This document shows, piece by piece, positions 3,458-64,000 of a DNA stretch of 64,000 nt. The stretch is from Escherichia coli (GTDB lineage: Bacteria; Pseudomonadota; Gammaproteobacteria; Enterobacterales; Enterobacteriaceae), in assembly GCF_003790525.1 (NCBI RefSeq), contig NZ_CP033635.1; one strand, written 5' to 3'. Every line of letters begins with the position of its first letter. The stretch's first letter is position 1. Position numbers and translations under genes: made by a program. The notes beneath the pieces are model-generated. The model did no database searches. It saw nothing but the letters and a program-made list of their open reading frames with translations, and was not told the DNA's origin.

Positions 3458-4630
3458 TTATTGTCCTGCGAGTTGCTGAAGGGCTGTGATGACGCGGTCG
3501 GCATCGGCGGTAGTCATATCCGGGAACAGCGGCAACGAACAGATGCGTTCGCTATTCCATTCGGTATTCGGTAACGACAGCGTGGGAAAACGCTCGCGAT
3601 AATATTTTTGTGTGTGAGCGGCGCGGAAATGTAACCCGGTACCAATACCTCTTTCTTTTAACGCTTCCATCAACGCATCGCGACTGATACCACAACGTTG
3701 TTCATCGACACGAATAATAAACAGATGCCAGGCGTGAACGTGCGGCCAGGCGGGAAGGCTTAATGGCTGAAAGGGGAGAGCTGCCAGTGCTTGCTGATAT
3801 TGCTGGGCAATTTCGCGCCGACGGGTGTTGAGGTGCTCTAATTTTGCTAACTGTGTCAGGGCAATCGCGGCGTTAATATCGGTCAGATTGTACTTATAGC
3901 CCGGTGTTAAGACTTCAGCTTGCGGTGCACGGCCCCAGGTTTGTCTGTCATAGGCATCGACACCCAGACCGTGAAATTTCAGCATCCGTAGCTGGCGGGC
4001 AAGGTTTTCATTATCAGTTACAATCAGGCCACCTTCAGCACAGGTAATATTTTTAATGGCATGAAATGAAAAAATAGCGGTACCTTTTGCGCCAATATGT
4101 CGCCCTTTGTAATACGTACCGACGGCATGGGCAGCATCTTCGATAACTGCGATGCCGTAACGTTCGCCAATGGCGCGAATGGCGTCAATATCTGCTGGCG
4201 CACCGGCATAATGCACCGGAATGATGGCTTTAGTGCGTGGCGTAATGGCTGACTCGATCGCTTCAGGCGTGACCATCAGCGTATCGCGGTCGACATCCAC
4301 CATTACCGGCGTTGCACCCAACAAGGAGATCATATTGAGGGTTGAAACCCAGGTCAGGGAAGGCGTAATCACTTCATCGCCCTTGCCTATTTCCAACGCC
4401 ATTAGCGTGATATGCATTCCGGCGGTGGCTGAACTGACCGCGATGGCATGCTGATTTCCCGTCAACTGGCAAAAGGCTTGTTCAAGCGCCTGATTCTTCG
4501 GACCGGTTGTGATCCAACCGGATTCGAGAACCTCTTTAACTGCAGCGAGTTCCTCCACGCCCATTGCTGGTCGCGAAAAAGGCAAAAATTCTGACATTGC
4601 TTTTCCTTCCGCCATTGAATACCTGTCCAC
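3458..4630 (-). CDS. arnB: ArnB, UDP-4-amino-4-deoxy-L-arabinose--oxoglutarate aminotransferase (PLP-dependent, DegT family)
   Basis: 390-aa ORF of the DegT/ArnB aminotransferase family. The true start may be an internal Met (M6 or M12 of the ORF), giving about 385 or 379 aa. Confidence 0.9.
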
Positions 4631-4695
4631 TTATATTTGCTATAAAGAGTGTTGTGTATATTTTGCCATTTGGAGCAAAATTTTAAGGATAGAAT

Positions 4696-4712
4696 ATTAA
4701 CTTAACCTTAAG
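4696..4712 (-). promoter_or_regulatory. PmrA (BasR) box in the arnB promoter region
   Basis: Minus strand reads CTTAAG-GTTAA-GTTAAT, matching the PmrA direct-repeat consensus YTTAAK-N5-YTTAAK, about 66 bp upstream of the arnB start. Confidence 0.7.
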
Positions 4713-4904
4713 AAACTAATATTAGACGTAAATATTGAAATTTTTATATTTTTTCTTATTTAGGCTTTGCATTTGGCAAAATTTTGAGGCATTTTGCCGG
4801 CATCGCAGGATTTTTAATATTACACCAACTGCTAATTATCGCCAGAAATGTCGCTCAATTTCACGGTAATTGTCTGGTTGCGCTTGTCTATAGGTGGAGT
4901 TTAC

Positions 4905-5507
4905 GTGTTAGCTTTTTGCCGCTCTTCGTTGAAGTCAAAAAAATATTTCATCATTTTACTGGCGCTCGCTGCAATTGCCGGACTGGGTACTCATGCCGCC
5001 TGGAGTAGCAATGGTTTGCCACGTATCGACAATAAAACGCTGGCCAGACTGGCACAGCAGCACCCGGTTGTCGTTTTGTTTCGCCATGCTGAACGTTGCG
5101 ATCGTTCAACCAATCAATGCTTGTCAGATAAAACAGGTATTACGGTCAAAGGTACCCAGGATGCCCGTGAACTGGGCAACGCTTTTAGTGCTGATATCCC
5201 TGATTTCGATCTTTATTCCAGTAATACCGTCCGGACCATTCAGTCGGCGACCTGGTTTTCAGCGGGTAAAAAATTGACGGTAGATAAACGACTTCTTCAA
5301 TGCGGTAATGAGATTTATAGTGCAATTAAGGACTTACAAAGCAAAGCACCTGATAAAAATATCGTTATTTTTACCCATAATCATTGCCTGACATATATTG
5401 CTAAAGATAAGCGTGATGCGACATTTAAACCTGATTATCTGGATGGTTTAGTCATGCATGTGGAAAAAGGCAAAGTTTATCTGGATGGGGAATTCGTTAA
5501 CCACTAA
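4905..5507 (+). CDS. ais: Ais, aluminium-inducible putative LPS core heptose(II)-phosphate phosphatase
   Basis: ORF 4848-5507 contains the Ais sequence (…[19 protein letters not shown]…EFVNH). Start placed at GTG 4905 to give the 200-aa form; signal peptide and histidine-phosphatase RHAER motif present. Confidence 0.85.
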
Positions 5508-5519
5508 ATTTTCAATCTG

Positions 5520-5539
5520 ACAGCCAGTAATGGCTGTCA
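5520..5539. terminator. Hairpin between convergent ais and nudI; candidate bidirectional terminator
   Basis: gacagcca-gtaa-tggctgtc perfect 8-bp stem between the two convergent stops. Confidence 0.5.
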
Positions 5540-5545
5540 TCATTG

Positions 5546-5971
5546 TTACAGAAGACCTTTCAAACGTAACGTTTTTCGGGTGGCGACATTCAAATCATAG
5601 TGCACTAGATCTTCAGGTTTTACCCACGCGTAGTCCTGAAACTCTTCGTTTATTTTCACTTCTCGGTTGGCAGAAACGCAGTCAAAAATCAGGTAAATCA
5701 TATAAATCTCTTCCTTGCGACCATCTGCATACGTCTTGGTGCGAATATCATCGCTGAAGGTCCACGGCGTGATTTCTGTCAAAAGCAGCTGTTCTCCCAG
5801 TTCTTCGCGAATTTCGCGGCGTAGTGCCTCTTCAATTCGTTCGCCAGGCTCTACGCCGCCACCCGAAAGCGCCCATTGACCGGGGAAAACGCCGCGATCG
5901 TCGGCCATTTTACACAGCAAATAAGCACCATCATTTTGAATCAAAGGGCATACAATAGTCCGTTGTCGCAC
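5546..5971 (-). CDS. nudI: NudI, Nudix nucleoside triphosphatase
   Basis: 141-aa ORF with Nudix box ([24 protein letters not shown]). Confidence 0.9.
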
Positions 5972-6248
5972 AGGGGTATTCCTTATAAATAAAAAGAAAC
6001 CATGAGAATACGGTAACTCAGAAATATGTGAAAGTGACAGTAATCTCTTTTGCGATGATAACTGTACTTATTATTATTTTTGTGTGTATCGATAAAGTGT
6101 GTTTATTTTTGCGGCGTTTAATTATTTAAGAAGTATTTAGTTACAATAAGTGACTAGATCCCTTTTTTCGCTCATTGAATCCTCTGCGCCAGGCAGTACA
6201 ATCCCGCAGCTTTGGGAATTTTGATTAATTGCTTGTGGGAAAGGGGAT

Positions 6249-6791
6249 ATGAAAAAAATTGCGCTAGCAGGTCTGGCCGGAATGCTGTTGGTTTCTGCAT
6301 CGGTCAATGCAATGAGCATCAGCGGTCAGGCGGGTAAAGAATACACCAATATTGGTGTCGGTTTTGGGACTGAATCGACGGGCCTGGCGTTAAGCGGTAA
6401 CTGGACACATAACGACGACGACGGTGACGTCGCGGGCGTGGGGCTGGGGTTGAATCTGCCTCTCGGGCCGTTAATGGCGACCGTTGGCGGAAAAGGCGTT
6501 TACACCAACCCGAATTACGGCGATGAAGGTTATGCCGCAGCGGTAGGAGGTGGTTTGCAGTGGAAAATTGGCAACAGTTTCCGTCTGTTTGGCGAGTATT
6601 ATTACTCCCCGGATTCGCTCTCCAGCGGTATTCAAAGTTATGAGGAAGCGAATGCGGGCGCGCGTTACACCATTATGCGTCCAGTCAGTATTGAGGCGGG
6701 CTATCGCTACCTGAACCTTTCTGGTAAAGACGGTAACCGCGACAACGCCGTGGCTGACGGCCCGTATGTTGGGGTTAACGCCAGTTTCTGA
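6249..6791 (+). CDS. yfaZ: YfaZ, outer-membrane beta-barrel (porin-like) protein
   Basis: 180-aa ORF with signal peptide (…SASVNA) and C-terminal aromatic residue; length and sequence match YfaZ. Confidence 0.85.
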   Translation: MKKIALAGLAGMLLVSASVNAMSISGQAGKEYTNIGVGFGTESTGLALSGNWTHNDDDGDVAGVGLGLNLPLGPLMATVGGKGVYTNPNYGDEGYAAAVGGGLQWKIGNSFRLFGEYYYSPDSLSSGIQSYEEANAGARYTIMRPVSIEAGYRYLNLSGKDGNRDNAVADGPYVGVNASF

Positions 6792-6799
6792 TCCCTTCC

Positions 6800-6830
6800 G
6801 GCGCGGCATTCTGCCGCGCCATTCAGTTTC
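6800..6830 (+). terminator. Rho-independent terminator after yfaZ
   Basis: ggcgcggca-ttc-tgccgcgcc 9-bp GC-rich stem followed by a T-rich tract (attcagtttctt). Confidence 0.7.
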
Positions 6831-6890
6831 TTACTACGCCTTATCTCCCTTTGCGTTATAGTGATTCGATAACAAAAGCAGGAGATAACC

Positions 6891-8093
6891 ATGTTAAAAG
6901 TGGAAATGTTATCCACCGGGGATGAAGTGTTACACGGGCAAATCGTTGACACTAACGCTGCCTGGCTGGCCGATTTTTTCTTTCATCAGGGGTTGCCATT
7001 ATCTCGCCGCAATACGGTGGGGGATAACCTTGATGACTTAGTCACCATTCTTCGCGAACGGAGTCAGCACGCCGATGTGCTGATCGTTAACGGCGGGCTG
7101 GGGCCGACCAGTGATGATTTAAGCGCACTCGCCGCTGCGACAGCAAAAGGTGAAGGCCTGGTGTTGCATGAAGCCTGGCTCAAAGAGATGGAACGCTATT
7201 TCCACGAACGTGGACGAGTAATGGCACCGAGCAACCGTAAACAAGCGGAGCTACCTGCCAGTGCTGAATTTATCAATAACCCGGTAGGCACCGCCTGTGG
7301 TTTTGCCGTGCAGCTCAATCGTTGCCTGATGTTCTTTACCCCCGGCGTACCGTCAGAATTTAAGGTGATGGTCGAGCACGAAATCCTGCCGCGCCTGCGC
7401 GAGCGTTTTTCTTTACCGCAGCCGCCGGTTTGTCTGCGTTTAACTACCTTTGGTCGTTCGGAAAGCGATCTGGCGCAAAGCCTGGACTCCCTGCAACTGC
7501 CGCCGGGCGTAACAATGGGCTATCGCTCCTCAATGCCGATTATCGAACTGAAACTCACCGGACCGGCAAGCGAGGAACAGGCGATGGAAAAACTGTGGCT
7601 GGACGTTAAACGTGTTGCCGGACAGAGCGTGATTTTCGAAGGCACCGAAGGACTGCCCGCGCAGATCAGTCGCGAATTGCAGAGCCGCCAGTTCAGCCTG
7701 ACGTTGAGCGAGCAATTCACCGGTGGTTTATTGGCTTTGCAACTTTCTCGCGCAGGTGCTCCATTGCTGGCGTGTGAAGTGGTTCCTTCACAGGAAGAAA
7801 CCCTGGCGCAAACTGCGCACTGGATTACAGAACGGCGGGCCAACCATTTTGCCGGGCTGGCACTGGCTGTTTCGGGTTTCGAGAACGAGCATCTCAACTT
7901 TGCGCTAGCCACGCCAGACGGCACTTTCGCTCTGCGTGTGCGTTTCAGCACTACGCGCTACAGCCAGGCTATCCGTCAGGAAGTGTGCGCAATGATGGCA
8001 CTGAATATGCTGCGCCGTTGGTTAAACGACCAGGACATCGCCAGTGAGCATGGCTGGATTGAGGTTGTTGAGTCCATGACCTTATCTGTCTGA
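6891..8093 (+). CDS. yfaY: YfaY, CinA-like competence/damage-inducible protein (MoCF-binding domain)
   Basis: 400-aa ORF with CinA N-terminal domain (…ADVLIVNGGLGPTSDD…). Confidence 0.85.
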   Translation: MLKVEMLSTGDEVLHGQIVDTNAAWLADFFFHQGLPLSRRNTVGDNLDDLVTILRERSQHADVLIVNGGLGPTSDDLSALAAATAKGEGLVLHEAWLKEMERYFHERGRVMAPSNRKQAELPASAEFINNPVGTACGFAVQLNRCLMFFTPGVPSEFKVMVEHEILPRLRERFSLPQPPVCLRLTTFGRSESDLAQSLDSLQLPPGVTMGYRSSMPIIELKLTGPASEEQAMEKLWLDVKRVAGQSVIFEGTEGLPAQISRELQSRQFSLTLSEQFTGGLLALQLSRAGAPLLACEVVPSQEETLAQTAHWITERRANHFAGLALAVSGFENEHLNFALATPDGTFALRVRFSTTRYSQAIRQEVCAMMALNMLRRWLNDQDIASEHGWIEVVESMTLSV

Positions 8094-63016: not shown

Positions 63017-63109
63017 AAAAAAAACCGGATGCGAGGCATCCGGTTGAAATAGGGGTAAACAGACATTCAGAAATGAATGACGGTAATAAATAAAGTTAAT
63101 GATGATAGC
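63017..63109 (-). ncRNA. micF: MicF antisense sRNA (regulator of ompF)
   Basis: Minus strand reads gctatcatcattaactttatttattaccgtcattcatttctgaatgtctgtttacccctatttcaaccggatgcctcgcatccggtttttttt, which is the MicF sequence including its terminator hairpin and U-tract; divergent from ompC. Confidence 0.9.
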
Positions 63110-63428
63110 GGGAGATATTCTAGTTGCGAGTGAAGGTTTTGTTTTGACATTCAGTGCTGTCAAATACTTAAGAATAAGTTATTGATTTTAACCTTGAATT
63201 ATTATTGCTTGATGTTAGGTGCTTATTTCGCCATTCCGCAATAATCTTAAAAAGTTCCCTTGCATTTACATTTTGAAACATCTATAGCGATAAATGAAAC
63301 ATCTTAAAAGTTTTAGTATCATATTCGTGTTGGATTATTCTGCATTTTTGGGGAGAATGGACCTGCCGACTGATTAATGAGGGTTAATCAGTATGCAGTG
63401 GCATAAAAAAGCAAATAAAGGCATATAA

Positions 63429-64000
<572 letters not shown>

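Follow-up and report, generated by a model that had tools for sequence, protein, structure and literature searches.

The nudI–yfaZ intergenic region of Escherichia coli: a probable shared control region with a conserved yfaZ-proximal segment

Results

The nudI–yfaZ locus and its base composition

The divergent genes nudI and yfaZ lie in a 64,000-nucleotide stretch of DNA, referred to here as the window, and are separated by a 277 bp intergenic region (Table 1). Gene boundaries were taken from the open reading frames and from the RefSeq annotation of identical DNA, and these place the locus on the E. coli chromosome. A sequence-only reading had described the region as strongly AT-rich with T-tracts, and its coordinates, length and description proved exact. 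GC content is 0.347, as against 0.503 for the window, and A/T runs of at least 5 residues occur at 14.4 per kb, a density about four times the window-wide value of 3.5 per kb. The AT-richness is real, but it is not exceptional. The window has 23 intergenic regions that measure 80 bp or more; the nudI–yfaZ region ranks fourth lowest of these in GC, and the nine divergent ones have GC contents of 0.281, 0.312, 0.342, 0.347, 0.373, 0.411, 0.487, 0.502 and 0.506 (median 0.373). The lowest of the 23, below the region studied here, is the divergent arnB–ais spacer (4631-4847; GC 0.281).

Of 5426 complete E. coli genomes, 5415 carry the region, each in one copy; being single-copy, it was judged to be neither a mobile nor a REP element. 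No annotated feature lies within it in the RefSeq records inspected, that of K-12 MG1655 included. Across the region K-12 differs from the window by six substitutions and one indel, which leave the yfaZ promoter hexamers and the upstream element described below untouched.

On the other side of nudI, where it converges with ais, a hairpin (acagccagtaatggctgt, at approximately 5514-5545) occupies the intervening space. In K-12 the 3′ end of nudI maps by Term-seq to 2365011(+), at this ais–nudI hairpin and antisense to the end of ais (Adams et al. 2021, PMC7815308). The ais–nudI gap is 38 bp in the window versus about 875 bp in the locus labelled 'E. coli strain E69' (L021, 350-2222), which suggests an insertion or rearrangement there; the yfaZ gene of this strain is 95% identical.

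Table 1. Genes and sequence features at the nudI–yfaZ locus (window coordinates)
Feature	Coordinates	Strand	Basis or description
arnB	3458-4630	minus	ORFs and identical RefSeq DNA
ais	4848-5507	plus	ORFs and identical RefSeq DNA
nudI	5546-5971	minus	GTG start
nudI–yfaZ divergent intergenic region	5972-6248	.	GC 0.347; ORFs, RefSeq annotation, composition
nudI Shine-Dalgarno (SD) sequence	5980-5984	-	AAGGA, 8 nt before GTG
Candidate nudI sigma-70 promoter	6005-6032	-	TTCACA, 16 bp, TATTCT; consensus scan
33-codon hydrophobic ORF	6028-6129	+	GTG start, without SD; judged non-coding
T-rich tract quoted in the sequence-only reading	6068-6110	.	Escherichia-specific; upstream of both yfaZ promoters
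Upstream element GAAGTATTTAGTTACAATAA	6130-6149	+	Tandem 10-bp repeat GTnnYA-N4-GTTACA; -79 to -60 of P1; overlaps P2 -10
yfaZ P2	6142-6153	+	-10 TACAAT 6142-6147; minor TSS A6153 (Kim et al. 2012, available part of Table S1)
T6 tract	6163-6168	+	Just upstream of P1 -35 (-46 to -41); kept in Escherichia, Salmonella and Citrobacter
yfaZ P1 core promoter	6175-6202	+	-35 TTGAAT 6175-6180, 16-bp spacer, -10 TACAAT 6197-6202; consensus scan
P1 TSS G6209 and 40-nt yfaZ leader	6209-6248	+	SD AAGGGG 6241-6246
yfaZ	6249-6791	plus	ATG at 6249
yfaY	6891-8093	plus	ORFs and identical RefSeq DNA

Conservation divides the region in two

Scanning a single genome for each species yielded 80 yfaZ loci, and the counts given below were taken over 78 Enterobacterales loci. 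The yfaZ–yfaY pair is kept throughout the Enterobacteriaceae and into Rahnella, Hafnia and Ewingella, whereas nudI is the divergent neighbour of yfaZ only in Escherichia, Salmonella and Citrobacter. When the intergenic regions were aligned, the yfaZ-proximal segment of about 120 bp (6130-6248) was the only part conserved across genera; the distal part, T-tracts included, can be aligned within Escherichia only. Identity to E. albertii is 0.69 in the distal part versus 0.85 in the proximal part. In Enterobacter an upstream ORF co-directional with yfaZ ends 6-10 nt before the 20-bp element, leaving a yfaZ control region of 121-129 bp that opens with the element.

Within Escherichia the distal half is under moderate constraint. 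Compared with the nearer species it is 0.83-0.87 identical, more than the 0.55-0.79 at 4-fold degenerate positions of the neighbouring genes, and compared with E. albertii and the E69 locus 0.67-0.69. The scan also recovered typical enterobacterial yfaZ–yfaY loci from assemblies named Terrisporobacter mayombei (477 bp, coverage 0.78), Chryseobacterium sp. 18061 and Pseudomonas sp. UBA4617, which are likely to be contaminated or mislabelled.

Two yfaZ promoters lie in the proximal segment

In the available part of Table S1 of Kim et al. 2012 (PMC3415461), two K-12 transcription start sites (TSSs) inside the interval are assigned to yfaZ. P1 starts at 2362338(-), with 11 reads and a 5′UTR of 41 nt, and P2 starts at 2362394(-), with 5 reads and a 5′UTR of 97 nt; both sites come from one study of a K-12 strain, and the read counts are low. 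The 51-nt sequence listed for P1 ends ...CATTGAATCC...CAGTACAATCCCGCAG, corresponding to G6209 of the window, and that for P2 ends ...AGTATTTAGTTACAATAAGTGA, corresponding to A6153, from which the 5′UTR in the window is 96 nt. As positioned from these entries, G6209 is 7 nt past T6202, the last base of the P1 -10 hexamer, and A6153 is 6 nt past the TACAAT of P2. The spacing between TACAAT hexamer and TSS is thus as expected in both cases, which supports the presence of two promoters.

A consensus scan arrived at the same P1 promoter as the TSS mapping, with hexamers that match TTGACA/TATAAT at 9 of 12 positions. The pattern TTGAnn-16 bp-TAnAAT recurs in 64 of the 78 loci, over many genera. In all 64 the spacer is 16 bp long, and its sequence varies; a fixed spacer length with a drifting spacer sequence indicates a promoter and not an RNA element. 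P1 combines every feature by which we recognised a sigma-70 promoter: hexamers at 16-18 bp spacing, a mapped 5′ end, and conservation of both the hexamers and the spacer length. The predicted yfaZ leaders measure 38-46 nt across loci.

The surroundings of the P1 start (6203-6220; CCCGCAG|CTTTGGGA, with CGCGGTTTTGGG in other genera) are better conserved than the remainder of the leader, and this could reflect a GC-rich discriminator or a constrained initial transcribed sequence. Conserved RNA structure was sought in both the short and the long yfaZ leader, and RNAalifold returned 0 pairs for 23 sequences spanning genera. In a single-sequence fold the P2-specific leader segment AUCCCUUUUUUCGC (6154-6168) pairs with the SD and start region of yfaZ (6235-6267). 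This fold is no better than that of shuffled sequences (z -0.30) and the pairing with the SD is not conserved; if it forms, the long P2 transcripts might be translated less well than those from P1.

The distal half and signals for nudI

The T-rich tract occupies 43 nt, of which 25 are T. It contains a 9/10 match (TCGATAAAGT, 6089-6098) to the high-affinity H-NS motif TCGATAAATT (PMC2094087), a match that is not significant alone since the window holds 11 such sites versus 5.3 expected. One Dan box (GTTTATT, for GTTNATT) is present in the region, at 6101-6107. For Dan (YgiP/TtdR), a nucleoid-like LysR protein, genomic SELEX in vitro recovered the yfaZ–yfaO spacer as a target, and in gel shift assays (EMSA) this spacer fell in the highest affinity class, equal to the dan–ttdA spacer (PMC2887951). 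The distal half thus probably serves as DNA for nucleoid-associated proteins, with Dan binding observed in vitro and H-NS binding suggested by the motif and the AT content. The tract also carries an exact 9-nt direct repeat, TTATTTTTG, at 6074-6082 and 6103-6111 with a spacing of 29 bp, which is probably due to chance. Beyond this two-copy repeat, a search of the region for repeats returned weak inverted repeats only.

On the nudI side, the complement of the nudI SD (TCCTT) shows no variation among the 24 nudI-bearing loci from Escherichia, Salmonella and Citrobacter, and the segment with the candidate nudI promoter, GAATACGG, is kept in Escherichia and some Citrobacter. The nudI promoter is most likely carried by the distal half, as judged from these sequence features. 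The available part of the Kim et al. 2012 table lists no nudI TSS, and no nudI or ais row stands between yfaZ and arnB. The minus strand of the nudI leader region (5972-6060) folds better than shuffled sequences (z -2.66; 0 of 200 shuffles as good). One hairpin in it (approximately 6001-5975) pairs with the nudI SD, AAGGA, and would be present in the transcript only if the nudI TSS allows. The divergent promoter candidate and the SD of nudI had been overlooked in the sequence-only reading.

A conserved 20-bp element upstream of P1

The upstream element (...ATTTAGTTACAAT) is found 105-114 nt from the yfaZ ATG in 63 of 78 loci, whatever the upstream neighbour. Its copies read GTAGTATTTAGTTACAATAT in Citrobacter and Salmonella, GAAGTATTTAGTTACAATAA in E. 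coli, GTAGCAACTGGTTACAATC in Klebsiella and GTTTCAAATAGTTACAATC in Enterobacter. The first half-site of the E. coli copy is degenerate (GAAGTA).

A position weight matrix (PWM) was built from the orthologous copies and run over the 64 kb and over fetched K-12 promoters. In the 64 kb the element itself was the sole strong match, at 24.4 bits, with the next site at 11.4. Among the K-12 promoters the matrix recovered the asr RstA box, the csgD OmpR/RstA site and ompF F1, each at about the top 1e-4 of background scores. The window supplies an internal control for such comparisons in the divergent micF–ompC region (63109-63444), with the classical OmpR boxes C1-C3; these boxes (63266-63326) were unmatched by the matrix, with a best score of -3.4.

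These properties suggest that the element is probably an operator for a response regulator of the OmpR/PhoB family, and from its sequence we infer that the best candidates are RstA, which acts downstream of PhoPQ, or OmpR. The consensus RstA box is TACATNTNGTTACA, a tandem TACA-N6-TACA (PMC4117788). Against this consensus the Enterobacter element matches at 10 of 12 positions (TTCAAATAGTTACA) and the E. coli element at 9 of 12 (AGTATTTAGTTACA, 6132-6145), a level found 40 times in the window versus 42.5 expected. The case for RstA is carried by conservation and position, because the consensus match occurs at chance frequency. With respect to OmpR, the available text of the ChIP supplements (PMC3945435) has no entry for yfaZ, yfaO or nudI, a weak negative given that this text is partial.

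Several other regulators were compared with the conserved element by eye and set aside. The sites of PhoP (TGTTTA-N5-TGTTTA) and PmrA/BasR (CTTAAT-N5-CTTAAT) do not fit it, nor do those of CpxR, EvgA, Fis, Lrp, sigma-E and sigma-54. For ArcA, the GTTA repeat of the element has a spacing of 10 bp and not 11 bp. The IHF core WATCAANNNNTTR is perfect in some Enterobacter and Leclercia copies, but it leaves the invariant ACA unexplained and has three mismatches in E. coli.

Alternative readings of the region

The conserved GTTACAAT block might be nothing other than the -10 of a second sigma-70 promoter, P2, in which case yfaZ would have plain tandem promoters and no dedicated regulator. In favour of this reading are the TSS at A6153, mapped in the available part of Table S1 to 6 nt after TACAAT 6142-6147, and the T-rich DNA further upstream, at the place expected of an UP element. 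The pattern of conservation, however, is the wrong one for a -10 hexamer. The TTACA core is invariant among the orthologous elements, including the C, which in TACAAT occupies the least informative position of a -10, and the critical T at -7 is replaced by A in 17 of the 39 unique element sequences. Taken together, the invariant TTACA and the variable T-7 point to a protein site and not to a -10. There is no conserved -35 at 16-18 bp upstream; instead, another half-site (GTAGYA, GTTTCA or GTATCA) is conserved exactly 10 bp upstream of the TTACA half, an arrangement typical of the tandem sites bound by OmpR/PhoB-family response regulators. Reads are also fewer at P2 than at P1 (5 versus 11) in the portion of the table available. 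We therefore regard tandem promoters with no regulator as unlikely, and favour an operator that overlaps the P2 -10.

Two further readings concern products of the AT-rich segment itself. A small RNA transcribed independently, from either strand, could be driven by a promoter-like TTGCGA-16 bp-TATTAT found by consensus scan on the plus strand (6050-6077), and it would account for the better conservation of the segment than of flanking 4-fold degenerate sites among the closer Escherichia species. Nothing further in the data speaks for such a transcript, which we consider very improbable. A search of 4400-7200 gave no Rfam match at E<=10 except chance matches to snoRNAs. The sole terminator-like site is weak, with a 5-bp stem, and overlaps the P1 -10 and TSS. 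Two Term-seq lists covering K-12 2354383 to 2365011 contain no 3′ end in that interval (PMC7815308), a weak negative given that the 3′ end of yfaZ is missing from them too. The available part of the Kim et al. 2012 table gives no TSS in the interval besides the two of yfaZ, and the SMRT-Cappable-seq supplements have no entry for the locus. The T-rich segment folds no better than shuffled sequences on either strand (z +0.85 and +1.22), has no homology beyond the genus and corresponds to no ncRNA annotated in K-12. That the 33-codon ORF encodes a small hydrophobic membrane protein is extremely improbable. It is open in all eight Escherichia sequences examined, and its N-terminal 20 or so residues stay hydrophobic; T-rich DNA, however, gives hydrophobicity in any frame, and we estimate the chance of 33 open codons at such a composition at about 9% per frame. 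The start is changed to ACG or GCG in three of seven species, a 1-nt deletion shifts the frame in another, and additional indels alter the C-terminus in almost all species. The variable columns fall 10/8/8 over the three codon positions, with no third-position excess. The ORF is missing from the K-12 annotation, which includes many small proteins found by ribosome profiling, and the available part of the Ribo-RET supplement has no start entry for it.

Discussion

We conclude that the interval is probably the shared control region of the divergent nudI and yfaZ genes, with two functionally different halves. The sequence-only reading had offered either a complex promoter for yfaZ or an unannotated small transcript. 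The promoter is borne out by the two mapped yfaZ TSSs and the conserved element; these lie in the proximal segment, however, and not in the T-rich tract that had been quoted. The small transcript finds no support in Rfam, terminator prediction, Term-seq, the TSS table or folding. A single yfaZ TSS with no other transcript was to have spoken against both proposals; the available part of the table lists two yfaZ TSSs, and a separate transcript was not seen in it. The yfaZ start sites were already known, having been mapped in 2012, and the region is an ordinary, largely known promoter region. The novelty is modest and lies in the conserved element, which gives a gene whose function is not known a candidate RstA/OmpR site that can be tested.

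In the arrangement we propose, the proximal 120 bp or so would act as a compact regulatory module kept across the Enterobacteriaceae. The sigma-70 promoter P1 starts transcription at G6209 and gives a short leader provided with an SD. A phosphorylated regulator of the OmpR/PhoB family would bind the element, centred at -69.5, and may activate P1 as a class-I activator. Its occupancy would also be predicted to shut off P2, because the element contains the TACAAT of P2. The distal 158 bp or so (5972-6129) is lineage-specific AT-rich DNA that holds the nudI SD and a probable nudI promoter and probably binds nucleoid proteins.

Expression data bear on the nature of the regulator. In colistin-resistant Enterobacter with a deletion of mgrB, in which PhoPQ is active, yfaZ and its product rank with the most strongly over-expressed envelope genes and proteins (PMC10434160), and this rise of yfaZ with PhoPQ on fits a PhoP to RstA cascade. 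A YfaZ-family gene is upregulated in Klebsiella by an antimicrobial peptide (cecropin), yfaZ is up in E. coli during urinary-tract infection, and the YfaZ protein is detectable at a low level in outer-membrane proteomes. YfaZ, whose function is not known, turns up repeatedly in the transcriptomes of colistin and antimicrobial-peptide resistance. We tentatively suggest, as a possibility short of an even chance, that RstA and/or OmpR act through an uncurated operator at 6130-6149 conserved across the Enterobacteriaceae, that this operator places YfaZ in the PhoPQ to RstBA envelope response, and that it operates a switch between P2 and P1. If so, an uncharacterised outer-membrane beta-barrel would join the envelope response to low Mg2+, acid and cationic peptides.

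The region can be compared with three kinds of known system. Like AT-rich divergent regions bound by nucleoid proteins (dan-ttdA for Dan, and H-NS sites), it combines low GC, T-tracts and divergent genes; neither its GTTNATT nor its H-NS motif match is above chance alone. The OmpR arrays of ompF (F1-F3) and ompC (C1-C3) resemble yfaZ in that their target is an outer-membrane protein gene, and the yfaZ matrix ranks ompF F1 (TTTACTTTTGGTTACATATT) within the top 1.3e-4 of scores. The half-site variants GTAGCA, GTATCA, GTTTCA and GTTACA of the yfaZ orthologues resemble OmpR half-sites. In contrast to these arrays, yfaZ has one clearly conserved 20-bp site and not three, and ompC C1-C3 are unmatched by the matrix. 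The closest parallels are the K-12 csgD OmpR/RstA site (GTTACATTTAGTTACATGTT) and asr RstA box (TACATATCGTTACA, matched by the matrix as TGTACATATCGTTACACGCT). The yfaZ element, a candidate site, differs from them in its degenerate first half-site in E. coli, with AGTA where the box has TACA, in its chance-level agreement, again in E. coli, with the RstA consensus and in its position relative to P1. It shares with both sites direct tandem half-sites, a 10-bp period and a GTTACA end; the two score in the top 3e-5 to 8e-5 of background with the yfaZ matrix, and an 11-nt run, ATTTAGTTACA, is identical between the csgD site and the yfaZ element.
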